Notes: generated by a model from the letters alone, not told the origin. Positions 3,778 to 38,177 are shown, counted from the first letter of the stretch. The stretch: DNA of 39,509 nucleotides from an uncultured bacterium (GCA_964650625.1 CAZYUV010000002.1:1-39509), one strand, 5' to 3'. Numbers and translations are program-made.

Positions 3778-3779
3778 TC

Positions 3780-12040: not shown

Positions 12041-12114
12041 GAGCGAAAGACGAGATTTGAACTCGCGACCCTCTCGTTGGCAACGAGATGCGCTACCGCT
12101 GCGCCACTTTCGCT
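12041..12114 (-). tRNA. tRNA-Gly (anticodon GCC)
   Basis: The reverse complement reads AGCGAAA-GT-GGCG-CAGCGGTA-GCGC-A-TCTCG-TTGCCAA-CGAGA-GGGTC-GCGAG-TTCAAAT-CTCGT(C)-TTTCGCT-C. It has a 7-bp acceptor stem, a GTTCAAAT T-loop and the anticodon loop TTGCCAA. CCA is not encoded. Confidence 0.9.
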
Positions 12115-16246: not shown

Positions 16247-16407
16247 TATTAATCGCTAGCAAATCGGATAACAAAGATACTTGAGAGATTACTCAAACAA
16301 GATTATCTTTAGACGGCTGATCAAATTAGAACTATTATTTCACAACTACGAGTTATTAGATAAAAACTCACTGAAGCTGATATAAACAAATCAAAAGGAT
16401 TTAGTAA

Positions 16408-17046
16408 ATGACTGTAAAACTTGTAAGTATCACACCTGATGCAGAACAGACAATGGCATATATCGCTAGAGTTTCTAATCCTTCAAATCAGGATAATGAA
16501 AAATATGCAAGACTGTTAAAATATTGCATTAAGCATAACCATTGGTCCGTTTTTGAGCAATCATCAATGACATTAGAGATTGAAACTACCCGTGCTATTG
16601 CAGCGCAAATACTAAGACATAGAAGTTTTACATTCCAAGAGTTTTCACAAAGGTATGCTGCTAGTACCGCTTTAGGGAATAGTATCGATTTACCGGAACT
16701 TAGAAAGCAAGACAAAAAGAATCGTCAAAACTCTACAGATGATTTAGACCCTCAATTAGTTGAATCACTCAACGATCAAATGGATACATTATTTAGTTCC
16801 GCACTGTCACTCTATAATAAAATGTTGGAGAATGATGTTGCTAAAGAATGCGCAAGAATGGTTCTACCATTATGTACGCCTACCAAAATATATATGACTG
16901 GTTCCTGTCGTTCTTGGATACATTATATTGATTTAAGATCTGCTCATGGCACCCAGAAAGAGCATATGATAGTTGCAGAAGGCTGTAGAAAAGTTTTTGT
17001 TGAACAATTCCCTGCTGTATCAGAAGCTTTAGAGTGGAAGACTTAA
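16408..17046 (+). CDS. thyX: FAD-dependent thymidylate synthase ThyX
   Basis: ThyX signature RHRSFTFQEFSQRY (RHRxxSxxxxSQRY). 212 aa, typical length. An AAAGGA RBS lies upstream. Confidence 0.9.
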   Translation: MTVKLVSITPDAEQTMAYIARVSNPSNQDNEKYARLLKYCIKHNHWSVFEQSSMTLEIETTRAIAAQILRHRSFTFQEFSQRYAASTALGNSIDLPELRKQDKKNRQNSTDDLDPQLVESLNDQMDTLFSSALSLYNKMLENDVAKECARMVLPLCTPTKIYMTGSCRSWIHYIDLRSAHGTQKEHMIVAEGCRKVFVEQFPAVSEALEWKT

Positions 17047-17269
17047 AGCCACAAATTTTAGCCTGTGCTTGGAGAAAATTTATAAGCAAATGATCACTAT
17101 AAATGGTCAATTATTTATTCAGGAAAACTTCAATTTTAAAAATACTATTATGGAAGTCAAAGCCTTAAAATCTCCAGAAAAGTATTTGACTCATTTTCAT
17201 ATTAGCTGAGACCTAATCGTAAGTGCTAAAATTTGAATATTCGAAGGACTGAACTATAGGAAATTAATT

Positions 17270-18742
17270 ATGAGCGATTGGCCTAATCAACTAACCGACG
17301 CGACCTCACCGAAAGAAAAGTGTCAAATCTTACAGACTATGCTATCTCAAATGACGGTAGAATCTATTGAAGAGTATACCACTCTGCAAAGTGCTACTAA
17401 AGGCGCCTACGGACCTGAAATCAAAGCCTACGGTCAGAAGTGCCTACAGTTCGCGGATAAAAAATTTCCTAATATGGAATCTGACGCTCAAAAAGCGGCT
17501 AAAGCTAAGTTAGATGAGCTTATAAAAGCTAAAGCTGATATGCCGGAGACTAAAAATTGCCCGTATTGCCTACAGCTTATCCCGTTTGGAGCAATTAAGT
17601 GCCATCACTGTGGTTCTGAAATGCAGGTAACGGAAGTAAGGACCATAGAAAATACTTACCCTATATCCGCTGTTGAAATCATGAGGCAAGCAAATCACAA
17701 AGGCAGCTCTGATATTCATTTACAAGTAGGATATCATCCCATTTTTCGTATTCATGGACACATGACTCACCAGATTCAATGGCCTAAATTAAAACCATCT
17801 GACACATTATCGATGGCCTATCAGATGCTAGATGAAGACTCCAAAAGAATATTCGAAGCTGAAAAAGAAACCGATATGGCTTTCGATATTCCTGGAACAT
17901 GTAGACTTCGAGTAAATGCAGCAGAAGAGAGGCTAGGATGTACCGTTGTTGCAAGGATACTTCCATCACATATTCTTAGTATGGATGATCTAAAATTCCG
18001 CGCTAAAGATGTCTTTGAAAAGATGTGTTTAGAGGTCAATGGGCTAATCTTAGTAACTGGTCCCACTGGGTCTGGTAAAACTACTACACTGGCAGCCATG
18101 CTGGACTATATAAACAGTCAGCGTAATGAGCACATGATAACCATTGAAGACCCTATTGAATTTGTACACACTCCTAAGAAAAGTAAGATTATGCAACGCG
18201 AATTGCGCACAAACACCTTAACTTTTTACAATGCTTTAAGGTCTGCTTTACGCCAAGACCCAGATATAATCTTAGTTGGGGAGCTCCGCGACCAAGAAAC
18301 AACGGCCCTTGCATTGGAAGCTGCAGAAACTGGGCATCTTGTATTTGGGACTCTCCATACTAACTCAGCAGCAAAAACTATTGATCGTATAATTAACATG
18401 TTTAGTTCTGAAGATCAGGCTAAAGTGAGAGTAAATCTAGCTGAAAACCTGAAAGGAATTGTTGCACAACAATTAATCAAGAAAGTTGGTGGTGGTCGTG
18501 TCGTGGTACAAGAAATAATGCTTAGAAATACCGCTATTGCCGCCTTAATTCGTGATGGAAAAACTTATCAAATTAACGAATACATCCAAACCGCAAAAAA
18601 TATGGGAATGCAAACTATGGATGAGGCAATTAAGCTTTCACTGGAACAAGGGGAAATCAGTCCGGAAAATGCTTATCGATATGCTCTGAATAAAGTTGAT
18701 TTCACCTATACCAAAGAATTAGAGGCTTTTGAGAAAAGTTAG
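17270..18742 (+). CDS. pilT: PilT-family type IV pilus retraction-type hexameric ATPase with ~125-aa N-terminal extension containing a zinc-ribbon
   Basis: Walker A is VTGPTGSGKTTT. The Asp/His boxes are DPDIILVGELRDQET and GHLVFGTLHTNSAAKTIDRI. The PilT-like motif is AIAALIRDGKTYQI. The extension carries CPYC...CHHC. Confidence 0.8.
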   Translation: MSDWPNQLTDATSPKEKCQILQTMLSQMTVESIEEYTTLQSATKGAYGPEIKAYGQKCLQFADKKFPNMESDAQKAAKAKLDELIKAKADMPETKNCPYCLQLIPFGAIKCHHCGSEMQVTEVRTIENTYPISAVEIMRQANHKGSSDIHLQVGYHPIFRIHGHMTHQIQWPKLKPSDTLSMAYQMLDEDSKRIFEAEKETDMAFDIPGTCRLRVNAAEERLGCTVVARILPSHILSMDDLKFRAKDVFEKMCLEVNGLILVTGPTGSGKTTTLAAMLDYINSQRNEHMITIEDPIEFVHTPKKSKIMQRELRTNTLTFYNALRSALRQDPDIILVGELRDQETTALALEAAETGHLVFGTLHTNSAAKTIDRIINMFSSEDQAKVRVNLAENLKGIVAQQLIKKVGGGRVVVQEIMLRNTAIAALIRDGKTYQINEYIQTAKNMGMQTMDEAIKLSLEQGEISPENAYRYALNKVDFTYTKELEAFEKS

Positions 18743-18760: not shown

Positions 18761-20722
18761 CTAGTCTTCCCAGCTTTCAGGTTCACCTTCCCAGTCCTCT
18801 TCTGCAAACTCGGCGTCAGCTTGCTCTGTCATAGTATCTTGAATATTACCAGTCTCCGAGTTAGTTGTATCAGATAACAGCGTCGTACTATCCGTTGATT
18901 TTACCTCTAAATTTTCCTCAACCGGTGGAGGCACTTCGTTACCCTCACTATCTATCCAAATCTCCCGAGGTGGAGCGATTACAAGTGTTTTGGCACATCT
19001 AAAGCCAATTAGCTCTGATATTGTTTCGGGATTCCTCGCATCACGAATGTAAACAGGATCGGCCGGTTCAGCCCAAGCACCACCTCGTACCACACGTTTA
19101 GTACCCTCCTCAGGTCCTTTTGGATCCTTCGGTTCGGAGTTTGAATAATACTTCGCATCATAATAATCCGACACCCACTCCTTAACTCCACCAAACATAT
19201 TAAATAAACCCTCATCTGTGGAGCCAGCTTTGAAATAATCAACTTCATACAATGTGTCTTCACCAAGCCATTCAAATTCAAATTGAGCAAGTTCAGGGTC
19301 AGGCGAAACATCTCCCCATGGATAGGGTCGCCCTTCGATACCCCGAGCGGCAAATTCCCATTCGGCTTCTGTTGGTAAGCGCTTGTCAAAATATTCACAA
19401 TATTCTTTCGCTTGATTCCAAGTGATGTTCATGATTGGTTGATTCATTATTCGATCAGTAGGTTTACCGTTCTTCCATAGATTATATTCAGGCTTATCAT
19501 TTAATCCAGGAGGGGCTGTTTTAGACTTCTCAACATAATCTAAATAATTTTGATTACTAACCTCATACTGATCCATATAAAAATCCGATAATTCGACCTC
19601 GTGGACAGAACGACAATCAGAACTGCACTCTTCATCTCCCATTGAAAAACTTACCTCTTGAAACAAATACATATTTTCGATTTCAACGATTTCTGATTCA
19701 ACGAGAATTTTTCGTGGCTTTGAATCTATTACCTCCCGTACAACTTTTCGAGACTTTTTCTTCTTCTTTTTTCCAAGCAAGGAATTTTCATATGCCATAT
19801 AACCGCCACCAGCTATTAATGCGAGTAGCAAAAATCCCTTTAAACCTGCGCTATTACCGTTAGCAGTGTTCACAGCTTTGTGTTTAGTAAATGAACGTAG
19901 AGCACAAGCAAATTTCTTAAGATCGGGCCTTTTTTTTGATTTTTTATTCAAGGCCTTTAGTATTAATTTGTCAGCTGCCTTAGGAATACCCTCTAATCCT
20001 AAAGACTTTTCTTCTTTATGTTTTTGCTCTTGTTCATCTCCCAGAAAAGGCGTTTCTCCTTCAAGTAGCTGAAAAAATAAACTAGCCAATTGATAAACTA
20101 AAACTTGTTCAGTAACTTCCAGTGAGGCATTTTCCCAACGTTCAGGAGGAGCATAGTATTTTTGCTGACTCTTGGGATAAAAAGTAGAGTCATCTGCACT
20201 TCCTAAAAGAGGTAAATGCATTACAACAAGATGACCCTCTTTCGTGTACATTAGATCCTGCGGAAAAATTTCAGAAACTGCCATCCCCTCTAAAAGAGCA
20301 CGGCGGTAAATCATTGCAGCTTCAGATATTAGAAAAGCGGCCTCATTAATTGGTACTTGATGATCAATAGAATTTGCTTGCAAACGTCTTGCAGTAATTC
20401 CATTAGGTCTTTCTAAAACTACTACAGGAATTGGATTTTTAATTCCTTCGATACTTACTTTCAGAATCTCCAGAACTTTCTGAAAACCATCGAAGGATAA
20501 GTCACGATATTTCAGAAATTCATTTTCGAAAACCGCAAAGTCTTCATCGGATTTAATTGTTACACCGTGATACACCCTCAGATAAACTCTGGATTTATCA
20601 TCACGATTTAGACCCATATAAATAGTTCCACCCGGAAAATCTCGCATTGGGTCAAGTACACGGTATCGTTTCTGAAAAACCGATTTTCTGGAGACAATTT
20701 TATCTTTGTTTTGCTGCTTCAT
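18761..20722 (-). CDS. Membrane protein: N-terminal degenerate Ser/Thr-kinase-like (pseudokinase) domain, one TM, C-terminal FGE-sulfatase domain, acidic tail
   Basis: The kinase-like fold retains YYAPPERW (APE region). It has VYLRV in place of VAIK, VSEIFPQDLMY in place of HRDLKPxN, and HLPLLG in place of DFG. The TM is GFLLLALIAGGGYMAY. FGE motifs are RLPTEAEWEFAARG, YPWG, RVVRGGAW and IGFRCAK. Confidence 0.6.
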   Translation of the reverse strand: MKQQNKDKIVSRKSVFQKRYRVLDPMRDFPGGTIYMGLNRDDKSRVYLRVYHGVTIKSDEDFAVFENEFLKYRDLSFDGFQKVLEILKVSIEGIKNPIPVVVLERPNGITARRLQANSIDHQVPINEAAFLISEAAMIYRRALLEGMAVSEIFPQDLMYTKEGHLVVMHLPLLGSADDSTFYPKSQQKYYAPPERWENASLEVTEQVLVYQLASLFFQLLEGETPFLGDEQEQKHKEEKSLGLEGIPKAADKLILKALNKKSKKRPDLKKFACALRSFTKHKAVNTANGNSAGLKGFLLLALIAGGGYMAYENSLLGKKKKKKSRKVVREVIDSKPRKILVESEIVEIENMYLFQEVSFSMGDEECSSDCRSVHEVELSDFYMDQYEVSNQNYLDYVEKSKTAPPGLNDKPEYNLWKNGKPTDRIMNQPIMNITWNQAKEYCEYFDKRLPTEAEWEFAARGIEGRPYPWGDVSPDPELAQFEFEWLGEDTLYEVDYFKAGSTDEGLFNMFGGVKEWVSDYYDAKYYSNSEPKDPKGPEEGTKRVVRGGAWAEPADPVYIRDARNPETISELIGFRCAKTLVIAPPREIWIDSEGNEVPPPVEENLEVKSTDSTTLLSDTTNSETGNIQDTMTEQADAEFAEEDWEGEPESWED

Positions 20723-21984: not shown

Positions 21985-22446
21985 TTAATTTCTAGGCCGT
22001 TGACGATCTTTGCTATCTAGCAAAATAGTTACGGGTCCATCATTCACTAGACTAACATTCATCTTGGCTCCAAATGTACCAGTTTTAACTGGTATTCCAC
22101 TTTGCTTAAATTTCTCTACTGCCAATTCGTAGTACTCTAAACCTTTGGAAGGATTTGCTGCTTTATTAAAAGACGGTCTGTTACCCTTTCGAGTGTCTGC
22201 TAGCAAAGTAAATTGAGAGACAATCAATAAAGAACCATTAACTTGTTGGATATTCAAGTTCATCTTATCTGCGCTATCAGAGAAAATTCTCAATCCAATT
22301 ATTTTTTTAACTAGGTAATCGAGATCTTCCTTGGCATCCTCTTCTTCCACTCCAAGTAAAATAAGAAAGCCATGCTCAATCTCGCCAGTAATTGATAGGT
22401 CAACTTCAACTCTGGCAGAAGAGACTCTTTGAATTAAAGCTTTCAT
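21985..22446 (-). CDS. dtd: D-aminoacyl-tRNA deacylase
   Basis: MKALIQRV N-terminus and the SQFTLLADTRKGNRPSF signature. 153 aa. Confidence 0.9.
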   Translation of the reverse strand: MKALIQRVSSARVEVDLSITGEIEHGFLILLGVEEEDAKEDLDYLVKKIIGLRIFSDSADKMNLNIQQVNGSLLIVSQFTLLADTRKGNRPSFNKAANPSKGLEYYELAVEKFKQSGIPVKTGTFGAKMNVSLVNDGPVTILLDSKDRQRPRN

Positions 22447-22449
22447 ATC

Positions 22450-23649
22450 TTAAAAAACCGCATTGAGTTGTAATCCAAACAAATTATCTTTAACACTCTC
22501 ATTATTAGAATTATTATTCTGCACAAAAAACTTAGTTAAAATATCTTCGTTTAGATAGTAACCTAGGCCAAACTCCAGTCGATCAATATCCTCATCCCAG
22601 GATGTATTACTGCCATTAATAGGAGAAACATCTCCAAAAATTAAACCACCAATTCGCATTGCACCATAGAATCTATGCTCCCAAAAATATTGCGCTTCCA
22701 AATAGTAACCCGTTGTTTCAAGGTCCTCGCTAATTCTTGGAGACTCAAATTTGTTAAAAATAACTTCTGCATTCAAATTCCAATTTTCTCGTTTGTAAGA
22801 ATAATCTAGGCCAATTAATTGCTGAAGGTAATCTCCGGACGAAAATCCATCCGGAAACGGTACGCGATTATCTAAATAGCTTCCCGCTGCAAAATTTAGT
22901 CCATAGCGCGAATGTTTACTTCCAGCATAAGCTAATTTAACAAAAAAGTTTTTATGTTTACTGGTGGAAATATTTTCAGGATTACTCAATGAATTATTAC
23001 TTATTCCAAAGTAATAATCTACGTTATTCTTTCGCGAAAAATACATTAGCCCAGTAGGATAATCAGGACTTAATAGTGGCATACCATCCACACTAGATTG
23101 ATTGGAAACGCCATCGATTATATTATTACGTGAATGCGTCATATTTCTAATAACACTATTCTTTAAGTTTAAAATTTCAGTAGTATTAGTAGGGTAACTG
23201 TCGGAACGTAAATTAGTTCTGTAATCGTAAATTAATGGATTTCCATAGAGTGGGTTGAATTGCGCATGTTTACGACGTATAAAATTACCAATAGGATTTA
23301 CTATCTTTCCAACATCTAAAATGTTCCCACGCCCAAAAGCATTCTGAAAACGTAAATACGCCAACTCTAAAGTTGGGTTGGAATCTCCATCCCAATCCAT
23401 CTGAGCTGAAAAAACGGTATCTCCTGATAATTCACTATCAAGGTAAATTTCCAAACTTCTAAGATCAAAACTCGCCATACCCTCGATATTGCGAGAACCG
23501 CTAATAAAATGAGATCTTTGATTTTCTGTATCTAGAAAATCCACTGCTACACTACCTGAAAAATTTACATCTTCAAATTTGCAATGAGCAGTAACTGTGA
23601 GAATTAATAAACCTATTATTAGCCTGATGTAAAGCATAGCTTTCTCCAA
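22450..23649 (-). CDS. Outer-membrane beta-barrel protein (porin-like), unknown family
   Basis: N-terminal signal peptide (LYIRLIIGLLILTVTAHC). The sequence shows alternating aromatic/small residue patterns and many Y/G/N residues, and ends in a C-terminal ...LQLNAVF with a terminal Phe. It lies 3 nt upstream of dtd, suggesting an operon. Confidence 0.5.
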   Translation of the reverse strand: MEKAMLYIRLIIGLLILTVTAHCKFEDVNFSGSVAVDFLDTENQRSHFISGSRNIEGMASFDLRSLEIYLDSELSGDTVFSAQMDWDGDSNPTLELAYLRFQNAFGRGNILDVGKIVNPIGNFIRRKHAQFNPLYGNPLIYDYRTNLRSDSYPTNTTEILNLKNSVIRNMTHSRNNIIDGVSNQSSVDGMPLLSPDYPTGLMYFSRKNNVDYYFGISNNSLSNPENISTSKHKNFFVKLAYAGSKHSRYGLNFAAGSYLDNRVPFPDGFSSGDYLQQLIGLDYSYKRENWNLNAEVIFNKFESPRISEDLETTGYYLEAQYFWEHRFYGAMRIGGLIFGDVSPINGSNTSWDEDIDRLEFGLGYYLNEDILTKFFVQNNNSNNESVKDNLFGLQLNAVF

Positions 23650-23765: not shown

Positions 23766-26714
23766 CTATTCTTGATCAAAAATTAATTTTGTCTGGCAAC
23801 CTTTTCCCGAGACTATTTGAATACTTAAAACGCCGCCATGTTGCTCTAGTATGCGTTTGGCTACGTGAAGGCCCAAACCTAATCGCCCTTTGTGCGTACT
23901 AAAGCCTGCATTGATTACTTCATTACCCATATTTTTAGAAGAATTTGAAGAATTATCTTGAAAAACAAATTCCAGTTTCTTTCGTTTGCTTTTCTCGTCA
24001 TTAAATACTCTCGATTTGAGTTTCAGCGCTCCACCTTTACCTAGAAACTCTAGATGGTTTTCCAAGACTAAAATAAAAGCTTTTTTAAGAACAGACCAAT
24101 CGGCAGAATGTAAGAATTTAACTTCTTTCACATCCTTAGAAAACTTTATAGATTTCGGATCAATATTGCTGTTGATTCGCTCTGAAAGGTTAAAACAAAT
24201 CTTCGGGATTTTATTGTAAACGTCTTTGATAACAGCTTGCTGTAAAGGGATAGTTTTTTTAGAAACCTCAATAGCGTCATTACTTAATTTGATTAGTTCT
24301 AAACTGTACTCAAGTTTCTCAAACAAACGCTTAATATGAACCTTTAATCCGTCCGGACTTACGGTTTGCATGGATTTTAAATTATTCGCCGCTTCACGTA
24401 GAAGACCTGTTGCATCGGGAGTACTCAAACTAGTATTGTCCATTACATTCGTCTTGCCAAAACTTTTTAGTTCCGTCAGAATTTCATGAAATACCTTTGT
24501 ATCAAAAGACTGACTAATTCGACTAGTTGACTCCAAGCCAGTCGAAATACCGGCTTCATTAGCTTCCATTTTATCTAATTCGGCTTCCATAGAAACTACG
24601 TCATCCGATAAAAAGAACGGTGGTATCTGGCCGGGCATTCCAGGAACATACTTACCTTCTTTCTTACGATTATAAAGTTCTTTTGTAGTAAGTTTCCACG
24701 TACCTGATCTGATTAATATTTCATCAATCAAATCTTCCTCTCCTTCGGTCGCAGCCAGTTTATCTTCATTCACCGTCAGACGATTTACTTCCTCTATTGA
24801 AGAAACACCTTGCAGCGCACGAATTAAACCTGAATCACGCAATGACATCATGCCATCTTCCTTGGCAATGCGCTTTAGTTCTATGGTAGATAAACCCTTA
24901 TTAACCGCAATCGCCATATTTTCAGTCATTTTCATGACTTCATGAATAGCTAAACGTCCCTTGTATCCATTACCAAGGCATTCTTTGCAGCCCTTGCCTT
25001 TGTATAATGACAAGTTATCGATATTCATACCAGAGGCACCATCGAAAGCCATTAAACGATCATTAAAACCCGTAGCAATCAACTCGCGCTTCGAAAGCTT
25101 ATCAATTTGTTTACAATTTTCGCACAGACGACGCATTAATCTTTGAGCAAGAATTACTCGAACTGCTGAAGTAATTAAAAATCTATCAATCCCCATATTT
25201 AGCATTCTACCTATGGATTCGACAGCAGAATTGGTATGTAGGGTAGACAACACAAGATGACCAGTTAAAGCTGCTTTTAATGCAATTTGAGCGGTTTCCA
25301 TATCCCGAATTTCACCAATTAAAATAATATCCGGATCTTGACGCAAAAAAGCCTTAAGCACTTTACCAAAAGTCATGCCTATTTCGGGAATACATGCAGA
25401 CTGTGCTATACCGGGCAAATCATATTCAACTGGATCTTCGGCTGTTTGAATGTTTACTGAAGGTTTATTCAGTGAAACTAGAGAAGAATACAAAGTCGTA
25501 GTTTTACCTGATCCAGTAGGTCCCGTTACCAGTAAGATTCCATTGGGAGAGTCCAATCCATACTGCAACAAATCATAATTTTCTTTATCTAAGCCGAGTG
25601 AATTCAATCGTAACCGACTACCTGATTGATCAAGAATTCGCATAACAATTTTCTCGCCCCAAGATACTGGACACGTGGACACACGAACATCAACAACTTT
25701 ACCTTTCAGCGACATTCTGAACTTGCCATCTTGGGGCATGCGGACTTCCGAAATTTCAAGTCCTGCCATCACCTTTATTCTAGAAGAAATAGGACCGGCC
25801 AGCTTAGATGGAAAAGGACCAGCACCTTTACGTAACATGCCATCAATTCTGTATCGCATAAGCAACTGGTGCTCAAATGGTTCAATGTGGATATCTGAGG
25901 TGCCTTGCTCAACTGCTGAAGTCACCACTTTGTTCATTAGCGTTTTAATGGGAGCGGAGTTTTCATCGAAGTCTTCACTTGCCATTTCTTCCAAAGTACT
26001 ATCTTCCGCTTCATCGATCATTTCAATCAAACTGTCCGCCATGGCACCTTCACCATAGTGAGCTTCATAGCTATTCTTGAAATCTTTCTCTGAAACGATC
26101 ATAGGAACCACGCGTAATCCCGTAGACATTTCAATATCATCTACAACTAAAATGTTCTGAGGATCTACCATGGCTACAAAAAGTTGATTATCCTCAAGTT
26201 TCACCGGCATAACCATGTGTTTCTGAGCCATTTTTGCTGGAATTTTATCCATAATCAGTGGGTCTGGAGGTGTTTTAGAAAGCTTAATATAAGGAATCAT
26301 TAGCTGCTCGCCTACTGACTTAGCTAATTCATCATCAGTTACTATGCCTAGTTGAACTAATGCCTCGCCGATCCGAACACCATGAGCAACAGAAAACTCT
26401 AACGCTCCTGCAAGTTGTTCTTCAGTGAGAACACCAGCAGCCCGTAAAATATCTCCAAGTCGGCGCTTTTTGCCCGTCCTTTTTTTCTGAATCTTTTTTA
26501 TAGCTGCTTGGTCTTGAAGAGCAATTTTTAATTGAGGTTGTGATATATGGCCAAGCTCTAAAAGAACTAGACCTAATGGCTCCTCTCGATTTTGAGAAAC
26601 TTCGAGAGCTTCTTCCAACTGGTCTATGCTTATAAAGCCTTTATCTTTAAGAATTTCCCCGAGTGGAATTTCTTTATTTTGTAATTGCTGCCTAAGGTGT
26701 CGATCTATTTCCAT
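23766..26714 (-). CDS. PilB/GspE/MshE-family secretion ATPase with duplicated N-terminal MshEN modules and a C-terminal histidine-kinase-like (HATPase_c/GHKL) domain
   Basis: Walker A is VTGPTGSGKTTT. Other core motifs are DPDIILIGEIRDMETAQIA, GHLVLSTLHTNSA and the tetra-Cys motif CENC...CKEC. Four LGxxLxxxGxIxxxxLxxxLxxQ motifs lie in aa 17-137. The C-terminal ~330 aa end in N-box-like LVLENHLEF and G2-box GRLGLGLHVAKRILEQHGG. Confidence 0.8.
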   Translation of the reverse strand: MEIDRHLRQQLQNKEIPLGEILKDKGFISIDQLEEALEVSQNREEPLGLVLLELGHISQPQLKIALQDQAAIKKIQKKRTGKKRRLGDILRAAGVLTEEQLAGALEFSVAHGVRIGEALVQLGIVTDDELAKSVGEQLMIPYIKLSKTPPDPLIMDKIPAKMAQKHMVMPVKLEDNQLFVAMVDPQNILVVDDIEMSTGLRVVPMIVSEKDFKNSYEAHYGEGAMADSLIEMIDEAEDSTLEEMASEDFDENSAPIKTLMNKVVTSAVEQGTSDIHIEPFEHQLLMRYRIDGMLRKGAGPFPSKLAGPISSRIKVMAGLEISEVRMPQDGKFRMSLKGKVVDVRVSTCPVSWGEKIVMRILDQSGSRLRLNSLGLDKENYDLLQYGLDSPNGILLVTGPTGSGKTTTLYSSLVSLNKPSVNIQTAEDPVEYDLPGIAQSACIPEIGMTFGKVLKAFLRQDPDIILIGEIRDMETAQIALKAALTGHLVLSTLHTNSAVESIGRMLNMGIDRFLITSAVRVILAQRLMRRLCENCKQIDKLSKRELIATGFNDRLMAFDGASGMNIDNLSLYKGKGCKECLGNGYKGRLAIHEVMKMTENMAIAVNKGLSTIELKRIAKEDGMMSLRDSGLIRALQGVSSIEEVNRLTVNEDKLAATEGEEDLIDEILIRSGTWKLTTKELYNRKKEGKYVPGMPGQIPPFFLSDDVVSMEAELDKMEANEAGISTGLESTSRISQSFDTKVFHEILTELKSFGKTNVMDNTSLSTPDATGLLREAANNLKSMQTVSPDGLKVHIKRLFEKLEYSLELIKLSNDAIEVSKKTIPLQQAVIKDVYNKIPKICFNLSERINSNIDPKSIKFSKDVKEVKFLHSADWSVLKKAFILVLENHLEFLGKGGALKLKSRVFNDEKSKRKKLEFVFQDNSSNSSKNMGNEVINAGFSTHKGRLGLGLHVAKRILEQHGGVLSIQIVSGKGCQTKLIFDQE

Positions 26715-27074
26715 AAAATTTCTGAAGATGCAAGATTAATGCAGATTTTATCAAATATAACTGTTCTTTTGGGATATTATCGGATACAAAGGACTTGTGC
26801 TTATTTATTGCAATCAAATATCTAAATCCATCTTACAGCCTCTTACAGATGATATTTCAGTAAGCACACCATCCAATCTACATTTTAAAATAATTTGAAT
26901 TTGTTATTGGAAAGCAAACCGATAGATATATACTCAACACGTAAAAAAATCTCACCCATACTTTGAATCTCATCGTAAGATTTTTGAAAATAATATTTCG
27001 AAATATAGCGATTTAAATGACCTTCTAACTAAAATAAATTAGCTAGACTAGCCGTTGTCTTTCGGTCAAAAACT

Positions 27075-27092
27075 ATTAGATTTAAATCTAAT
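27075..27092. repeat. Perfect 18-bp palindrome ATTAGATTTAAATCTAAT in a long intergenic region
   Basis: Read directly: ATTAGATTT (27075-27083) is the exact reverse complement of AAATCTAAT (27084-27092). Function unknown. Confidence 0.9.
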
Positions 27093-27447
27093 TTTTAAAG
27101 TATTTTCGATATTAATCCATCTTCTTGGCGAATTAAAGCTAGCGACAACTATAAAATAGTTACCTCAATATAAATATGATCCTAAGCTAACCCTATTGCA
27201 TAACAAATAGCGTGAGCACTGTTAGTAGTTAACTCCTCACTCTCGATGTTCATTCCTACTGTCAGTATTGAACCGAATAATTAAGGGTATTTAACCAAGA
27301 TTTAAAAGCGGCATCAAAAAGTATTTAGATAAGAAAAATTCCAAAATTTAATATTTTTTTTGAGAAAAAAACCGATCAAAATCGTAGTTTATAAGTTAAT
27401 TTTTAATATTTTTTTTTGCTTAAAAAAGGTTTTTTTAAATTATTAAA

Positions 27448-27503
27448 TTGACAAAGATAGCTAATACCCTTATCAATAAGGACGATATTAAGGTTAGCTA
27501 TCT
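27448..27503 (+). promoter_or_regulatory. Putative sigma70-type promoter with overlapping 10-bp inverted repeat (candidate operator) upstream of the HTH gene
   Basis: TTGACA (27448-27453), a 17-nt spacer, then TATCAA (27471-27476). The perfect inverted repeat AGATAGCTAA (27455-27464) / TTAGCTATCT (27494-27503) straddles the -10 and the predicted start site. An AAGGAG RBS at 27554-27559 precedes the ATG at 27566. Confidence 0.4.
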
Positions 27504-27565
27504 ATATATTGGATTTATAAAGTTCATATAAATAAAAACCTAGTAATTAACTTAAGGAGTTAAAA

Positions 27566-27964
27566 ATGGCAAAACTAAAAACATTAAAAGAAGCTGGCGA
27601 AGCAACCGGTATTGGGTTAAGCACTATTCGTAAGTATCTTAGCGAGTTTGGTGAATTAATCCCAGTGGAAAAAGGTCCTCGTAATGCTCTACTTTTCAGT
27701 ACTGAAGCTATCAAAGTACTAAAAAGTATTCGCGAGGCTTATCAAGATAAGAGAACTCATGAAGAAATCGTAGCTAAGTTATCTGGCAAAAGATTACCAC
27801 GCAGGAAAAAAGAGGAAGCTGTACAAGCTCCAGTAAAAAAAGCTGCTACTCGACGTAAGAAAGCTCCAGCTGTACCTGCGCCAGCTCCAGCTGTAAACCT
27901 AAATCGTGAAGAAACTATCATGAAAGGTTATGAAGATCAGCAAACTGATCAAGGTCTTTGGTAA
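27566..27964 (+). CDS. MerR-type HTH DNA-binding protein with basic Ala/Pro/Lys-rich (histone-H1-like) C-terminal tail
   Basis: TLKEAGEATGIGLSTIRKYLSEFGELIP fits the MerR/HTH_17 pattern. The tail is RRKKEEAVQAPVKKAATRRKKAPAVPAPAPAV. The gene has a strong RBS and its own terminator. Confidence 0.6.
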   Translation: MAKLKTLKEAGEATGIGLSTIRKYLSEFGELIPVEKGPRNALLFSTEAIKVLKSIREAYQDKRTHEEIVAKLSGKRLPRRKKEEAVQAPVKKAATRRKKAPAVPAPAPAVNLNREETIMKGYEDQQTDQGLW

Positions 27965-28273: not shown

Positions 28274-29416
28274 ATGGTATTTGAGAGTTTCAACTGGCTA
28301 TTCTTTATTGCCTTAATTTTAGTACATTTTGTAGTTACAGGCCGAATTCGTTTGGGATTGTCGTATTTGAGTGGCATTTATTTCGTTTACGCCTATTCTC
28401 CAACAAGTCTAGCAATTTTATCTCCGGTGGCATTATTAATTATTGGGCCGTACCTATTTCAAGAATCTGAAACTCGAAATCAATTCTACGGTTTCATGTG
28501 GCTCGCCATGTGGGGGCTATACTATCTATTCGTTAGTAATCATAACTTTGATCAAAGGGAATACTTCCCATATGAAATTTTAGTGTTAGGAGCATACAAT
28601 CTGGCAAGGTTCTATCATGTATTTAATGATTTAAATTTCCTACGATACAGAGGACCAAAATGGGATGAAATTTTAGCCTATTTATTTTTTCCTCCAATCC
28701 TTTTTTGTGGTCCACTCGAGAAAATTCAAGAGTTTTTGAAATTTTACAAGAATCACGCATGCTATAAATCAATTGACTACAAAGGCTCTGCTAAGCTCCT
28801 TAGTATTGCGGTTTTTCAGGGAGCTATCGCAGAATTCTGCTCAACCGCACTGACTCCCGATTTAGTAGATTTTTCAGAAATAACACTATTCCCACTTATA
28901 GTCTATGTCTTGGGCATAGGATGGGAAATTCATTTTAGATTAGCCTCATACATCAATTTTACGCGTGGTTTCGCTTGGCTAATGGGTTATCATTTTGAAA
29001 AACCTAATTTCCAAGCACCTTATTCGGCTAGATCTGTGGCGGGATTCTGGTCACGTTGGAATATGTCACTTTCCAGATGGACAAGAGAGTATCTTTTCTA
29101 CGGAAATATAGAAGACTTTAGTGCAAAAAGAGTTATCATCGTTCTCGGTTTATTTTGGTGTTTAGTGGGTATACTTCATGGCATAAGTTGGCATTACTTC
29201 ACTTGGGGGCTTTTAATGGGCTCAACTATACTCTTTAATTTTGCCTACATTTATGCCCGCTATCACTGGGATTGGTTAATGAAAGTGGATGCTCAATTCA
29301 TACCTTTATCAGTCAAAAGAGCAGTCACAATTGTATGGATTCATGCATCTTGTATTTTGCTGGTTCCCGAATGCGAAGATATAATTAAGTCATTACATAG
29401 AATTCTCTCTCTTTAG
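28274..29416 (+). CDS. MBOAT-superfamily membrane O-acyltransferase-like protein (short, divergent), paralogue A
   Basis: Polytopic membrane protein. FFPPILFCGPLEKIQEF, SVAGFWSRWNMSLSRWTREYLFY and LVGILHGISWHYFTWGLLMG align by eye with the AlgI/DltB motifs (FWRRWHISLSxWxRDYxY; GGLWHGAxWxFxxWGxxHG). Confidence 0.65.
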   Translation: MVFESFNWLFFIALILVHFVVTGRIRLGLSYLSGIYFVYAYSPTSLAILSPVALLIIGPYLFQESETRNQFYGFMWLAMWGLYYLFVSNHNFDQREYFPYEILVLGAYNLARFYHVFNDLNFLRYRGPKWDEILAYLFFPPILFCGPLEKIQEFLKFYKNHACYKSIDYKGSAKLLSIAVFQGAIAEFCSTALTPDLVDFSEITLFPLIVYVLGIGWEIHFRLASYINFTRGFAWLMGYHFEKPNFQAPYSARSVAGFWSRWNMSLSRWTREYLFYGNIEDFSAKRVIIVLGLFWCLVGILHGISWHYFTWGLLMGSTILFNFAYIYARYHWDWLMKVDAQFIPLSVKRAVTIVWIHASCILLVPECEDIIKSLHRILSL

Positions 29417-29446
29417 AAACAAGCTGGAACAGGTTACAATATTCGT

Positions 29447-30478
29447 ATGGGTAAACTTCATAGATTTTTGTTGGGTTATAAAGAAGATCGCGGTGTTAAG
29501 GTTCTAAATTCTTTTAGTGACCTTAGTGAAGGTCCATATCGCGACTATGCCGCTGAGATTGTATTTACTTACATAAATAGTCTCAATAGAGCATTGATTT
29601 CACGATCAGCAGCCGAACTTCACAGGGAATATAACGAAAACCAGGCTCAAAAAGATTTAATACCTTTCCAGTTGGAAGCTAGTGCTATGGCTGCTGCTAT
29701 TAGTGATAATTATTTACCCTCCGTCGTTCCCTTAGTTAAGAGAGATTTTCTTGATAAATTAATAGAAGTCTTCGGTAACTCTTACAGAGAGATGATTTTA
29801 TTAGGTGCTGGACGCGGTATGGCAGAGATACCTAATTTTAACTTGCACACTATCGTAGCTAAGTATCCCCCAGAAGTACGCTGGTTAATAATGGATGGCT
29901 ACGGTTTCCAAAAGGGATTTTTTGAATTTCCGAAAAATCGAAATCAAATTTACATACCAAAATTTAAGTTCCCATATTTTCATAAAGCCTATGCACAAGG
30001 GTTAGGGAGGAGTTTAGGCTTTTATTTAGCTGATCAACCTAGCAAGATTAATAGCTACCTTGAACGAATCCAGGGAGCAGAAGCCTCAGACTTGTGGAGT
30101 GGTGTAGGTTCTGCAGTAGCGTTCTTAGGAGCATTAACTCCCGAGCAGTTTGATGAATGGTGTAATGCCAACTCTGAATATCGTCAATTCATAGCAGTGG
30201 GTTTGGCCCTTGCATGTCGATTACAAACACAATGCGGATGGCATTATGAAACAACAGATTCATATTGCAAAATGTTATGGGGTGTATCGGCACAAGAAAT
30301 AACAGATAGAGTCCTCAATCTGCAGGCACACCTCGAAGCAACCCAAATGCCTGATCAATCTTTATATGATGAGTATACAGACTATGAAAATCTTCGCGAT
30401 TTGATGAAAGAAGAATTTGTAGCTGGCACCTACTTGCAGAAGTTTCAGTCATCTTCCGCAGACGAATCTAGTGATTAA
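29447..30478 (+). CDS. Soluble hypothetical protein, DUF1702-like (assignment from memory of the family motif pattern)
   Basis: Repeated small-residue motifs occur at regular spacing: EASAMAAAISD, LLGAGRGMAEI, MDGYGFQKGFF, AQGLGRSLGFY, WSGVGSAVAFLG and IAVGLALACRL. It has no TM or signal peptide and starts 30 nt after paralogue A. Confidence 0.4.
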   Translation: MGKLHRFLLGYKEDRGVKVLNSFSDLSEGPYRDYAAEIVFTYINSLNRALISRSAAELHREYNENQAQKDLIPFQLEASAMAAAISDNYLPSVVPLVKRDFLDKLIEVFGNSYREMILLGAGRGMAEIPNFNLHTIVAKYPPEVRWLIMDGYGFQKGFFEFPKNRNQIYIPKFKFPYFHKAYAQGLGRSLGFYLADQPSKINSYLERIQGAEASDLWSGVGSAVAFLGALTPEQFDEWCNANSEYRQFIAVGLALACRLQTQCGWHYETTDSYCKMLWGVSAQEITDRVLNLQAHLEATQMPDQSLYDEYTDYENLRDLMKEEFVAGTYLQKFQSSSADESSD

Positions 30479-30505
30479 GTACCACTTTCAAAACTTTTGA
30501 CTACG

Positions 30506-31645
30506 CTAAAATTGCAGACCAAAGCGCGCTAGAAGTCTTGCATATTGCTCATACCAGTCTGGATACCACAAGGCCCATGAAAATAATACGAATATATGAG
30601 TCATCACTATTTTTATAATATCCGGAAAATAGCGAGTATCATAAATCATCAACCACCTAAATTTTAGCTTTAGATATATATATAAGAAATTCAATAAAAC
30701 TGCAGCACCATGCAAAAGTCCCCATAAGAAGAAACCCGAAGTCATATCTTTCATTATCCCAATAAGAACAAAATATATAAAAACGGCTGCCGCGAAATCC
30801 CGGGCTCGAAATTGAGTTAAAGATCTATAAAACAAATGACGTTTTAACCATCTAGTCAATGAAATATTGTAGTGAGTCCAAAAGCTCGCAACACTCTTAA
30901 CTTTATGAACTTGGTGAAAATTTGGCGTATTAAATGGATAACCCATCATAAATGACCATCCTCTTACAAAATCAAACCAAGAGGATAAACTCAACATTAG
31001 AGTGAAACCCAAAAGATATATTTTCATGAGCAATATGGTAGCTGATGCTTTATCAAAATCAATATCAGCTTCCACAATAGCCATTCGAATTATATATACA
31101 ATGCTTCCCTTCAGAATTCCGTAAACCCAAAGCTTTAAACCCGTTAACCATTGTCGAGGTTGCTGGTTAGTATGGTATTCGCGGAATTCTTGATATCTCT
31201 CCAATGGCCCACAGAACATAATGGGTGGATACCAGAGATAAGCGATAATATTCCAAATATCATCTCGATTAATAATAATAGAGCGTCTGTAAGCCACCAC
31301 ATGCATATATCGGAGTGTATTGATACCGAAAGCTGAAAATGCAAATGGAATGATATCTAAGCGACCTTCCCAAGCGTATAGCCAATCCCAGAAATAAATA
31401 ACGGAAATCAATAAAACAAGTAATAAAGTAGAGTGGTTGGATAAGACAAATCGGACAATAGGGCGAAAAGCCAACAAAACCAAGGAGGTACTACCTACTA
31501 ACATCAACCAAGCTGGTGGACAGAAATAAAATACGAAAACAGAGCCCGTTAATACAAATCCAATGGATCGAGATGCACCAGCTGGCAAAAAACTAGCCAA
31601 AAAAGCCAAGAAAAAAATATACCAGTTCTCTAAATGTATTACCAA
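30506..31645 (-). CDS. MBOAT-superfamily membrane O-acyltransferase-like protein, paralogue B (inverted relative to A)
   Basis: Same length and motif order as 28274-29416: LWYPPIMFCGPLERYQEF, SVASFWTHYNISLTRWLKRHLFY and LIGIMKDMTSGFFLWGLLHGA. Confidence 0.65.
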   Translation of the reverse strand: MVIHLENWYIFFLAFLASFLPAGASRSIGFVLTGSVFVFYFCPPAWLMLVGSTSLVLLAFRPIVRFVLSNHSTLLLVLLISVIYFWDWLYAWEGRLDIIPFAFSAFGINTLRYMHVVAYRRSIIINRDDIWNIIAYLWYPPIMFCGPLERYQEFREYHTNQQPRQWLTGLKLWVYGILKGSIVYIIRMAIVEADIDFDKASATILLMKIYLLGFTLMLSLSSWFDFVRGWSFMMGYPFNTPNFHQVHKVKSVASFWTHYNISLTRWLKRHLFYRSLTQFRARDFAAAVFIYFVLIGIMKDMTSGFFLWGLLHGAAVLLNFLYIYLKLKFRWLMIYDTRYFPDIIKIVMTHIFVLFSWALWYPDWYEQYARLLARFGLQF

Positions 31646-31865
31646 AAGTCGTACCCGCCATCCAATCTATCGAGATTACAGACAAGTTCTGATAGAAAAA
31701 GATTATTTTTGTCACCTATCTGCCGTGGAACAAAGGAATCTGTTCCAATATAATCTTTCAAGCGTTCAAATGTATAATTTCTGCACCAAATTGCAGCAAG
31801 GAACTGTTCTTTGTCAAACCCCAAATCAGAGGTTTATAATGATCACCTGCTTGAAGGAGGTTTCC

Positions 31866-33101
31866 ATGCAGCAGGTTTATATAGGGCCATCTCACTCAAT
31901 GTCTTGGCACGGTTTCGATAATGAAAAAACATTTGAATCGATTTTCGAGGGGAAAAGCCCCTTGAGCGGCATTCTAAATGTTATCGAAGAAGCTCAAAAA
32001 AATAATGTTCCTGGTAGAATTCCATGGGATTTATTCAAAGATTTCGATATTGACAACAAATGCGTCAAAAATGGACCCGTAGAAGCTCGGTATGCATACA
32101 TTTGTACGAAAATGCTTCTCGAAAAATTCCCACAGATCCTAGACTACCGCAAAGACATGGGACTGTATGTTGGAACGATGAATAATTATTACGGATTAGT
32201 CGGTCTCAGAAATGGATATCGAGTGTGTGTAAACGAGCAATTTACTTACGATAAACGTACATTTGAAAGTAAGATAGGTTTGGGCTTTTCTTTTGTACAT
32301 CCCATGGTACCTGTATATAAAATACCCAACAATTGTGTCGCAAACATAGCATTAGATTGGGAATTAAGAGGTGCCAACGCTAACTACTTCGGTGAAGATT
32401 CATCGTCTACAGCCTTACACGAATCTTATTTAAAAATACGAGCAGGTCGCTTGAAACAAACGCTCACCGTAACCTCAAATCATTTGTTCCTAAACTATCT
32501 GGATTTTCTATTTACAGACTTGCCAACTCTCACGAAGAAAGAGCCCGCCAAGCTAATTCCAGAGAAAGATAACTTTTTCTTTCCTTCAGAATGGGCCTCG
32601 TCCTATCTTCTTTTCAACGAAGAACAGAGCGATACGCTTGGAATAGAAAGACAAGCACAAATTCTCGCATCTCATCAAACGAGCTTTCAAGGTGTATATA
32701 TGCGCAGGAATTTGAAGAAGGAGACCGTGGAACAAGTAGTAAAAGCTTGTCTTAAAAAAGCTCAGTTAGAGTTCTCAGATTTGGATCTCGTAGTTTTTGA
32801 CAATGTTGATAAAGACAAATCTCAAATCGCAGCTTTAACAGAACTTCGAGGAAATGGTAAAACTAAGCTACTGACACCTTCATTATTCATCGGACATCCA
32901 ATATGCGCTAATGGAGGCGCAATGATTTCGACAGCTCTCATGTGTTTAAAATATCAGAGCGTATTTTCTTCTTATCTAGAAAGTATCCCGGAAAAACCTG
33001 AACTCACATCTAAAAAAGAAGCTCTCAATATAAAATATGTCCTAGTCTTATCACAAGGGCTCAATAACAGCTTACATGGCTTAATTCTGGAGAAAGCATA
33101 A
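31866..33101 (+). CDS. Ketosynthase-fold protein lacking the Cys-His-His triad (chain-length-factor/KS-beta-like)
   Basis: The start is re-assigned to ATG 31866, in frame with the 31563 ORF. A GAAGGAGG RBS at 31853-31860 lies 5 nt upstream. The longer ORF would overlap the MBOAT-B start on the opposite strand. KS-like MQQVYIGPSHSMSWHG N-terminus. GEDSSSTALHES stands where KS enzymes have xTACSSSLxA, VVFDNVDKD where they have HGTGT, and IGHPICANGG near the C-terminus. Confidence 0.6.
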   Translation: MQQVYIGPSHSMSWHGFDNEKTFESIFEGKSPLSGILNVIEEAQKNNVPGRIPWDLFKDFDIDNKCVKNGPVEARYAYICTKMLLEKFPQILDYRKDMGLYVGTMNNYYGLVGLRNGYRVCVNEQFTYDKRTFESKIGLGFSFVHPMVPVYKIPNNCVANIALDWELRGANANYFGEDSSSTALHESYLKIRAGRLKQTLTVTSNHLFLNYLDFLFTDLPTLTKKEPAKLIPEKDNFFFPSEWASSYLLFNEEQSDTLGIERQAQILASHQTSFQGVYMRRNLKKETVEQVVKACLKKAQLEFSDLDLVVFDNVDKDKSQIAALTELRGNGKTKLLTPSLFIGHPICANGGAMISTALMCLKYQSVFSSYLESIPEKPELTSKKEALNIKYVLVLSQGLNNSLHGLILEKA

Positions 33102-33838
33102 TGGATAAAACATGCCTAATTGTAGGTGGCTCGCGGGGTATAGGAAAAGCCACGGCTGAACGATTCCTCAAAGATGGTTGGAAAGTAGGAATCTCTTACA
33201 ACAGTACTCAACCCGATTGGATTGAAAGTTATCCCGAAGAACAACGTTGGGCAGGCCAACTTGATGTAACAAATGGGGAACAAATTCCTGATTTTTTAAG
33301 CCAATATAAAGAATTCAGTGGAAAAAAGATCGACGTTTTTATCTACAATACCGGAATCACTATCGATGCCTTAACCATACATGGAAAAAATGAGGAATTC
33401 GATAAAGTACTCAGCACCAATTTACGCGGTGCTTATATCTTCCTTCGGGAGGTTGGTCATTTCATGTTCTTTAAGAAACGGGGTAAACAGTTCTACATTT
33501 CATCTGTAGCTGCAAAACGGGGTGGCCGTGGGCAATTAAGTTATGCGGCCTCGAAAGCGGGACTTGAAGCGTTAGTTCGAGTTGGTGCTCAGGAGTTTTC
33601 GCGAGCGGGGGTAATGATAAATGGAGTCGCTCCCGGGGTTACTGAAACTGATATGACAGAACAAGTGATGGAATTTGTCAAAGGTAACAAGAAAGGTGAT
33701 GGATTATTCGACAGAATAGCGATGCGTAGAACGGCAAAACCGGAAGAAATCGCTAACTTTTTATTTTCTCTGTCGCAAGAAGAAATAACTTACATAACTG
33801 GTCAAACGTTCAATATTGATGGCGGCTACATGCTCTGA
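33101..33838 (+). CDS. fabG: SDR-family 3-oxoacyl-ACP reductase (FabG-like ketoreductase)
   Basis: VGGSRGIGKA (TGxxxGxG), NTGI (NNAG-like), and the catalytic S...YAASKAGL (YxxxK). The start ATG overlaps the upstream TAA (TAATG at 33099-33103). Confidence 0.85.
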   Translation: MDKTCLIVGGSRGIGKATAERFLKDGWKVGISYNSTQPDWIESYPEEQRWAGQLDVTNGEQIPDFLSQYKEFSGKKIDVFIYNTGITIDALTIHGKNEEFDKVLSTNLRGAYIFLREVGHFMFFKKRGKQFYISSVAAKRGGRGQLSYAASKAGLEALVRVGAQEFSRAGVMINGVAPGVTETDMTEQVMEFVKGNKKGDGLFDRIAMRRTAKPEEIANFLFSLSQEEITYITGQTFNIDGGYML

Positions 33839-33849
33839 AAGTTAGTTAA

Positions 33850-37722: not shown

Positions 37723-37725
37723 ACT

Positions 37726-38169
37726 ATGCGCTACATATTTTTACAACAATTCGAAATTCAGGATGACGGGGATACAATTAAAGGAACGCTTCCCGTTACC
37801 AAGGATTGGGAAGTTTTTCAAGATCACTTTCCAGGATTTCCGATAATGCCCGGGGCTTTGATACTGGAGACCATGGCTCAACACTGCGTTGCTTTGATGC
37901 TCGAGCATAAGCAAGGTGATGATCCGGTCGTTCCTACACTAATTCAGGTAGATAGGGCTAAATTTAAAGAACCAGTATTCCCCGATTGTACATTGGATAT
38001 AGAAGTCAAAAAGGAAATTGCTATGTATCCAAACTTTAAATTTTCTGCTAAAGCTAGCGTTAACAATAGAGTTGTCAGTGAAGCTCGACTAACTATGGCC
38101 TTTAGAGATGTTGGTATGGGGCAAGGTCTAGATTTTATGGGTTTCTTTTTCAAAGGAATGCAAAAGTAG
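37726..38169 (+). CDS. FabZ/FabA-like hot-dog fold 3-hydroxyacyl-ACP dehydratase
   Basis: FQDHFPGFPIMPGALILETMAQ matches the FabZ HFPxxPxxPGVLxxEAxAQ active-site region. 147 aa. It starts 3 nt after the upstream stop. Confidence 0.8.
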   Translation: MRYIFLQQFEIQDDGDTIKGTLPVTKDWEVFQDHFPGFPIMPGALILETMAQHCVALMLEHKQGDDPVVPTLIQVDRAKFKEPVFPDCTLDIEVKKEIAMYPNFKFSAKASVNNRVVSEARLTMAFRDVGMGQGLDFMGFFFKGMQK

Positions 38170-38177
38170 GTGGTTAT

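Follow-up and report, generated by a model that had tools for sequence, protein, structure and literature searches.

A PilB-family ATPase carrying a C-terminal histidine-kinase-like module in uncultured bacteria

To our knowledge, the motor ATPases of the PilB family are regulated either by separate proteins, such as PilZ/FimX, SgmX and the PATAN response regulators, or by N-terminal cyclic di-GMP (c-di-GMP) domains. The receptor domain MshEN is defined by two 24-residue motifs, RLGxxL(V/I)xxG(I/F)(L/V)xxxxLxxxLxxQ, with five residues between them (PMC7288161). A survey of MshEN proteins lists fusions to REC, HD-GYP, CheA, CheX, cyclases and Ser/Thr kinases, the combination of T2SSE and HATPase_c domains not being listed (PMC5013675), and such a fusion is not mentioned in a review of PilB (PMC11656802). 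Here we describe a gene with this architecture, located at positions 23766..26714 on the minus strand of a 39,509-nucleotide stretch of DNA from an uncultured bacterium (GCA_964650625.1, CAZYUV010000002.1:1-39509; hereafter the window). The gene is a single open reading frame, whose 982-aa product joins a PilB-family ATPase to a module resembling histidine kinases. No account of a T2SSE-HATPase_c protein turned up in full-text literature searches, and the architecture is apparently undescribed. An earlier note on this DNA had come to the same view, which holds for the literature; in the databases the fusion is rare rather than unique, and the precomputed Pfam annotation already lists PF02518 for many entries.

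The fusion protein and its motor core

The segment 23766-24767 corresponds exactly to residues 650-982 and the stop codon of the 982-aa reading frame, so that motor and extension share one frame. The identical protein is encoded on five contigs in at least three assemblies (two from Tara Oceans and a third, unrelated one) made from different samples; the source organism is marine, with a GC content of ~36%. Orthologous uninterrupted reading frames of 975-1010 aa are present in seven GTDB species representatives, on contigs of up to 170 kb, and further fusion homologs retrieved by a full-length search sit on contigs of up to ~400 kb. The fusion is genuine and constitutes one continuous protein. 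The artefactual joining of two genes, for which the earlier note had left room, is thus contradicted by the single frame, the recurrence of the same protein in at least three assemblies and the seven continuous orthologs.

The protein's N-terminal portion, encoded like all its segments on the minus strand, contains two stretches matched by the MshEN_N model NF053729. In the first pair (residues 16-68; 26511..26669), position 1 of both 24-residue motifs is occupied by Pro instead of Arg, and this pair agrees only with the relaxed motif defined in the MshEN survey (PMC5013675). The second pair (residues 85-137; 26304..26462), the predicted c-di-GMP site, matches model positions 1-53 of 53 with 86 bits against a cut-off of 38, and is composed of RLGDILRAAGVLTEEQLAGALEFS, the spacer VAHGV and RIGEALVQLGIVTDDELAKSVGEQ. 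By direct reading it fits the receptor motif definition, including the five-residue spacer; the first of its motifs departs from it at position 7 (R) and position 24 (S), the latter being permitted by the relaxed motif of PMC5013675. In an alignment of 54 PilB-family sequences, L86, G87, G116, L119 and Q137 are invariant. Binding of c-di-GMP by the MshEN motifs is predicted.

The two motif pairs are followed by an MshEN/GSPII_E N-terminal domain (residues 139-223; 26046..26300; PF05157, 71.6 bits) and by the T2SSE hexameric ATPase core (residues 251-645; 24780..25964), which matches positions 3-370 of the 370-position model PF00437 with 432 bits. All motifs expected for the GspE/PilB superfamily are present in the core, namely the Walker A sequence GPTGSGKTT, the Asp box, a Walker B motif containing the catalytic Glu, a His box and the zinc cluster of four Cys (tetra-Cys). 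The corresponding positions G398-K404, E426-D427, E468-D471, H486, H493, C531, C534, C576 and C579 are invariant in the same 54 sequences, and the core is modelled by AlphaFold with a predicted local distance difference test score (pLDDT) of 80-95. Judged from its sequence, the core appears fully competent as an ATPase.

A decayed histidine-kinase transmitter at the C-terminus

The C-terminal extension ends in a catalytic and ATP-binding (CA) domain of the HATPase_c type (residues 820-980; 23775..24257), which was recognized by Pfam, hhalign, AlphaFold and Foldseek. Pfam HATPase_c matches residues 876-979, scoring 27.4 bits when the full-length protein is searched and 29.4 bits (E 1.2e-6) for the tail alone; the gathering cut-off being 26.4 bits, the single-sequence match is therefore marginal. 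The same model is matched in 10 of 10 family members (the window protein and nine relatives), with a best E of 1.6e-8. When 1.84 billion representatives were searched with a profile of the extension built from two sequences, 3380 proteins were retrieved at E<=1e-3, and the matches inspected outside the fusion family were all ordinary histidine kinases, aligned over the CA domain. The closest solved structure by sequence is the CA domain of ThkA (3a0t, E 2e-5). When compared by hhalign with 82 trimmed kinase cores consisting of a dimerization and histidine phosphotransfer (DHp) domain and a CA domain, the extension aligned over 232 columns with a probability of 99.9% and an E of 1.8e-35. AlphaFold models were built from a 4-sequence alignment and later from the 54-sequence full-length alignment. 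In the former the CA domain has a pLDDT of 80-93, and the top Foldseek matches in the PDB, all with probability 1.00, are the DHp and CA cores of WalK, GacS, DivL (4q20, E 2.4e-10), HK853 and RetS (6dk8, E 3.8e-10).

Conservation within the extension was assessed as mean pairwise identity over 16 distinct sequences of family A, the group of fusions to which the window protein belongs; family B denotes a distant set from Wallbacteria and Riflebacteria. The motifs of the CA domain are the N-box LENHLE (Asn886), the G1 box D920NSSNS, the motif GFSTHK and the G2 box GRLGLGL. The domain as a whole has 47% identity, with N886, H887, E889, G894, G895, D920, G937, G946, G948, L949 and H959 invariant; N886, D920 and the G2 glycines are unchanged even where identity between CA domains falls to 38%. 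In the G1 box of family A only Asp920 is kept (DNSSNS, or DNAGG in one member), and family B has the canonical DxGxG. The nucleotide-pocket residues that are retained, comprising the N-box Asn, the G1 Asp, the GF[ST]T.K motif and the G2 loop, are under purifying selection, as judged by the alignment.

Between the motor and the CA domain lie three segments of unequal conservation. The family-specific linker (residues 649-715; 24570..24770), which has no Pfam match and is modelled by AlphaFold with low confidence, reaches 61% identity and thereby exceeds the CA domain. Seventeen of its positions from L662 to E710 are invariant, S670 and W673 among them, and its motif, L..EI.IRSG.WKL..K....R.......PG..G, is not present in the fusions of family B. 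The next segment (residues 716-768; 24411..24569; 25% identity) consists of a relic H-box helix, VFH743EILTELKSFG, and a loop of variable length. The global hhalign alignment to the 82 kinase cores pairs H743-E744, at low local confidence, with the HE in the H-box sequence HELRNPL; this alignment was used since a search for the phospho-His by family profile against 147 kinase matches gave alignments of the helical region that were too weak. In the column equivalent to the H-box His, the 16 members have the residues H, N, N, Q, E, E, E, K, Q, K, N, H, Q, E, G and N, i.e. His in 2 of 16. The window protein is one of these two, and its 89-90% identical relatives have Asn. Right after the relic H-box, an insertion of variable length splits the equivalent of DHp helix 1. 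It is followed by a DHp-like helical hairpin (residues 769-812; 24279..24410), modelled by AlphaFold as helices 769-784 and 787-812 with a pLDDT of 70-88; the helix VHIKRLFEKLEYSLELIKL, pointed out in the earlier note, is the DHp helix 2 equivalent.

The HisKA model is matched in 0 of 10 family members, even at E<=10, and no column between residues 716 and 820 contains H, Y, S, T or D in >=80% of the 16 sequences. A conserved His was likewise not found in the fusions of family B. Thus the family is without a conserved phospho-acceptor His. The module contains the N, G1 and G2 boxes of sensor kinases and lacks a DHp domain with the conserved His. Because the His column is variable and the CA residues are invariant, we regard the extension as a complete histidine-kinase transmitter of NtrB-like descent that has decayed, its nucleotide pocket being retained and its acceptor lost. 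It is made of the CA domain preceded by the relic H-box helix and the DHp-like hairpin. The earlier note had described a PilB/MshE-type ATPase with a C-terminal GHKL domain, and had assigned an N-box, a degenerate G1 and a G2 box from the sequence alone. The HATPase_c matches throughout the family and the hhalign and Foldseek matches to DHp-CA cores bear out this architecture, and all three boxes are present. The GHKL domain proved to be a genuine HATPase_c domain, though not a bare one, and of the two profiles suggested there HATPase_c is matched on the tail and HisKA is not.

Distribution, paralogy and gene neighbourhood

A scan of GTDB (one genome per species) identified seven loci that encode the full extension at 38-47% identity, all in metagenome-assembled genomes (MAGs) labelled Candidatus Cloacimonadota or UBP17 at NCBI. 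The full-length search added family members at 59-90% identity, as well as family B, whose proteins of 1015-1036 aa are 36-39% identical over >90% of the query and come from MAGs labelled Candidatus Wallbacteria and Riflebacteria. Altogether, the architecture is represented by at least 26 clusters at 90% identity in MAGs of at least three candidate phyla. The module is retained at full length in lineages that are 36-65% identical overall, with the ATP-binding residues and the family A linker motif invariant. A word-indexed search with the extension had returned one partial homolog; the extreme rarity that this implied was an artefact of sensitivity, as the profile, GTDB and full-length searches found more. 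Three short matches that could have been taken for a stand-alone kinase-like module (P0005, P0006 and P0077) are fragments of fusions, and PilB motifs were detected in 0 of 146 other top matches of the extension profile. Among the best full-length matches there are also many GspE/PilB-family proteins of ~1000-1070 aa from Patescibacteria (Moranbacteria and others; P0169-P0202 etc.), which have no HATPase_c domain and are of a different kind.

In a neighbour-joining tree of 506 core ATPase columns, computed with no outgroup and from the best 120 matches only, 23 fusions were separated from 64 canonical PilBs in 200 of 200 bootstraps, and family A was monophyletic in all 200. The extensions of families A and B are homologous (hhalign probability 99.8%, E 1.9e-28, 240 columns) from the pre-DHp helix through the DHp-like hairpin to the CA domain. 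The bootstrap split of the fusions and the homology of the two extensions point to a single ancient fusion that would predate the divergence of the Cloacimonadota/UBP17-labelled lineages, Wallbacteria and Riflebacteria.

The MAG BROCD023 (GCA_019454875.1) allows a direct comparison of the fusion with an ordinary PilB. It encodes a fusion on contig 37 (JACFNL010000037; locus L007), and on JACFNL010000001 a canonical operon that comprises pilB (573 aa), pilT (353 aa) and pilC (403 aa) together with a pilin gene. The best NCBIfam model for the window protein is the PilB equivalog TIGR02538, whose cut-off is 675.65 bits. The window protein scores 629.7 bits and the other three of the four fusions tested score 619.6, 633.0 and 673.8 bits, all under the cut-off, whereas the canonical PilB of BROCD023 (P0206) passes it with 719.8 bits. 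Neither the window nor the regions within +/-10 kb of the related loci contain pilC, pilin or pilM-Q genes, in agreement with the earlier note, which had remarked on the absence of pilC and pilM-Q from the window; only a PilT-family gene is syntenic. Because the fusion and a canonical pilB operon coexist in one MAG and the fusions score below the PilB cut-off, the fusion is, on this comparative evidence, a PilB paralog and not the PilB of a pilus operon. The names under which the fusions are deposited ("TadA", "PilB" or "hypothetical") give no hint of the paralogy or of the additional module.

The syntenic PilT/PilU-family ATPase of the window (490 aa; 17270..18742, plus strand; TIGR01420, 428 bits against a cut-off of 319) is encoded 5 kb from the fusion, and its orthologs, 64-67% identical, are located at most 6 kb from the fusion in L005, L007, L009 and L010. 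It carries an N-terminal extension of ~130 aa, in which a zinc-ribbon-like motif CPYC...CHHC is observed. Two co-directional genes lie downstream of the fusion. The nearer one, 116 nt away, encodes a 399-aa protein (22450-23649, minus strand) that has no Pfam or NCBIfam match and is conserved at this place in L005 and L006; its N-terminus is hydrophobic, and its C-terminal ...LNAVF resembles the signature of outer-membrane beta-barrels. The other encodes the D-aminoacyl-tRNA deacylase Dtd (21985-22446, minus strand; Pfam Tyr_Deacylase), which adjoins or neighbours the fusion in 7 of 7 loci. The recurrent neighbours of family A also include an SPM-domain protein. A 653-aa protein with an FGE-sulfatase domain and a weakly Ser/Thr-kinase-like N-terminal half (18761-20722, minus strand; PknB, 21.7 bits) is syntenic with the fusion in four loci, and a 1324-aa protein with an FGE-sulfatase domain and DUF4116 repeats is encoded at 12272-16246 on the plus strand.

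Upstream, a small MerR-superfamily helix-turn-helix protein is encoded divergently (27566..27964, plus strand; PF13411, 24.4 bits), and its orthologs occur upstream of the fusion in L005, L006, L008 and L011. By BLAST it has no similarity to the HTH_17 gene upstream of the Wallbacteria fusion, and the two were rejected as a cross-phylum pair. The AT-rich intergenic region of 850 nt between the fusion and the MerR-like gene (26715-27565) contains no Rfam family at the gathering threshold and no promoter or terminator signal beyond shuffled background, and the Rfam, promoter and terminator scans around the gene as a whole gave no signal above background. A tRNA gene at 12042-12113 (minus strand) is the only Rfam match in the window.

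Several further observations concern single loci or more distant parts of the window. In L016 (family A), a gene for a methyl-accepting chemotaxis protein (MCP) and one for a CheA/CheW-type kinase (13457-17625 of that locus) converge on the fusion-Dtd pair, and MBOAT and AlgX genes lie upstream of the fusion. In L015 (Wallbacteria), a stand-alone receiver-domain (REC) gene is found 2.6 kb downstream of the fusion (15719-16060 of that locus). The CheA/CheW-MCP pair and the REC-only gene each occur in a single locus and are not conserved. In the window, the region 28274-39473 contains two MBOAT (AlgI-like) genes flanking a DUF1702 gene, followed by a lipid- or polyketide-like cluster with a short-chain dehydrogenase/KR, a 1290-aa acidic protein, and proteins of 147 aa and 431 aa that by eye resemble a FabZ-type dehydratase and a ketosynthase. 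At the other end of the window, an operon on the minus strand (1430-7989) encodes a STAS protein (1430-1777), a 667-aa protein with weak AAA and Trans_reg_C matches, a 640-aa SpoIIE-type PP2C phosphatase and a 764-aa protein without matches.

Possible roles of the module and comparison with known systems

By analogy with described proteins, we tentatively favour, with moderate confidence, the interpretation that the fusion is a pilus-type motor that responds to c-di-GMP and carries its own built-in regulator, a nucleotide-binding pseudokinase of the DivL/RetS kind. The MshEN motifs would take the c-di-GMP input to the motor, the DHp-like hairpins would pair subunits, either within the hexamer or between the motor and a partner, and the CA domain would sense ATP/ADP or another nucleotide. 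Through such contacts and its nucleotide state the module could gate, localize or report the activity of the c-di-GMP-controlled motor, which would probably partner the neighbouring PilT-like ATPase on the type IV pilus or filament machinery of the cell. Classical His-to-Asp phosphotransfer would not be expected. A number of observations weigh against this interpretation. The lost G1 glycines of family A could mean weak or absent ATP binding and not sensing; His743-Glu744 stand at the H-box-equivalent position, so that phosphorylation of the window ortholog there is conceivable; and the DHp-like hairpin has a mean pairwise identity of 27% and moderate model confidence. With a predicted template modelling score of 0.48, the placement of the module on the motor is unreliable in the model. 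No platform protein, pilin, response regulator, Hpt or histidine-kinase partner is consistently adjacent across the loci, all known carriers are MAGs or metagenomes, and the simple construction of the tree given above applies to the proposed single origin.

Alternatively, the module could be an active kinase that couples motor activity to phosphorylation by means of a non-canonical or trans acceptor, a possibility that we regard as unlikely. The candidate acceptors would be His743, Ser670 within IRSGxWKL, the His of a separate Hpt or DHp partner, in a heterodimer of the CheA or RetS/GacS type, or some residue within the motor. Strong selection on the ATP-binding residues and the fully canonical G1 and G2 boxes of family B would suit such an activity, as would the alignment of H743-E744 of the window protein with the H-box HE, the linker being the best-conserved part of the extension and containing an invariant Ser, and the CheA/CheW-MCP pair or stand-alone REC gene found near the fusion in single loci. 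However, only 2 of 16 sequences have His in the H-box column, the two closest relatives having Asn there, an insertion interrupts the DHp helix 1 equivalent, the G1 glycines are lost in family A, and no Hpt, REC or histidine-kinase partner is syntenic across the loci; Ser670, for its part, is tied to phosphorylation by invariance alone. A more far-reaching version, in which a self- or trans-phosphorylating motor would integrate c-di-GMP, ATPase state and phosphorylation in one polypeptide with Ser670, His743 or a partner as acceptor, is more doubtful still. If true, two-component-type chemistry would here be wired in a new way straight to a secretion or pilus ATPase.

That the extension has no function, being a decaying kinase remnant or a product of misassembly or frameshift, would agree with the degenerate G1 box, the lost H-box, the poor conservation of the DHp-like region and a data set drawn wholly from metagenome assemblies. 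We nevertheless consider it very improbable, because independent assemblies contain the identical reading frame and the functional residues are invariant: the seven species representatives are continuous on contigs that reach 170 kb (~400 kb for further homologs), and full-length retention at 36-65% identity, with invariant ATP-binding residues and linker, is unexpected for a neutral relic. The speculative proposal of the earlier note that the module could be an RsbW/SpoIIAB-type Ser kinase phosphorylating the STAS protein of the operon at 1430-7989 appears scarcely credible. It drew on the lack of a kinase in this operon. The operon indeed combines STAS and SpoIIE-type PP2C phosphatase genes, and a search of it found no GHKL kinase; the fusion module is a poor candidate for the vacancy. 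RsbW and SpoIIAB share with it the GHKL fold and the lack of a phospho-His, but the fusion has a DHp-like hairpin, its sequence and structure neighbours are all DHp-CA sensor kinases, and the HATPase_c_2 model (PF13581) is matched in 0 of 10 fusion members, even at E<=10. In GHKL Ser kinases and ATPases, a Glu that serves as general base stands four positions ahead of the N-box Asn; at this place the fusion has Leu882. The STAS operon is 16 kb from the fusion with unrelated genes between them, it is not syntenic, homologs of the STAS genes are absent within +/-10 kb of the seven orthologous fusion loci, and no STAS or sigma factor gene is linked to the fusion in these loci, unlike the situation for RsbW and SpoIIAB.

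As a regulatory layout for such motors, a kinase-derived module that is permanently attached to the C-terminus and conserved in several candidate phyla would be new, and for pilus specialists the domain combination is a surprising one. The family is also a clean natural case of a histidine-kinase transmitter repurposed after the loss of its His. Although every carrier is uncultured, which sets a practical limit, residues ~650-982 provide a defined, expressible construct for asking what His-less CA domains sense.

Among the described systems, PilB and MshE share with the fusion the MshEN motif pair, the N1-type domain, the T2SSE core and all the ATPase motifs. The fusion differs from them by an extra N-terminal motif pair and by the 330-aa C-terminal kinase-like extension, and from PilB also by its location outside a pil operon, its score under the TIGR02538 cut-off and its coexistence with a canonical set of pilB, pilT, pilC and pilin genes. 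As a precedent, the PilB of Myxococcus xanthus is reported to signal for exopolysaccharide production (PMC5544727), its nucleotide state being read out in addition to its use as a motor; the protein described there is an ordinary PilB without a kinase-like domain, whereas the fusion carries one. The closest relatives of the CA domain are the NtrB-like and ThkA kinases, including, besides 3a0t, PAS-containing histidine kinases with E values down to 4e-13. Common to them and the fusion are an NxxEA N-box (of the NAIEA type), an FTTK-like motif and a GxGLGL G2 loop. In contrast to these kinases, the fusion has no HisKA match, its H-box His is unconserved, its G1 glycines are replaced (DNSSNS), and its only sensor input is the motor with its MshEN domains. 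The nearest parallels for a transmitter in this state are DivL of Caulobacter and RetS of Pseudomonas, in which the DHp-CA fold and the CA domain are kept and the acceptor His is missing or non-functional. DivL has Tyr at the His position, where the fusion family has a variable column together with the insertion in DHp helix 1, and both DivL and RetS are stand-alone multidomain sensors, whereas the module described here is an appendage of a secretion ATPase. By analogy with these two proteins, the module is expected to act by protein-protein contacts.

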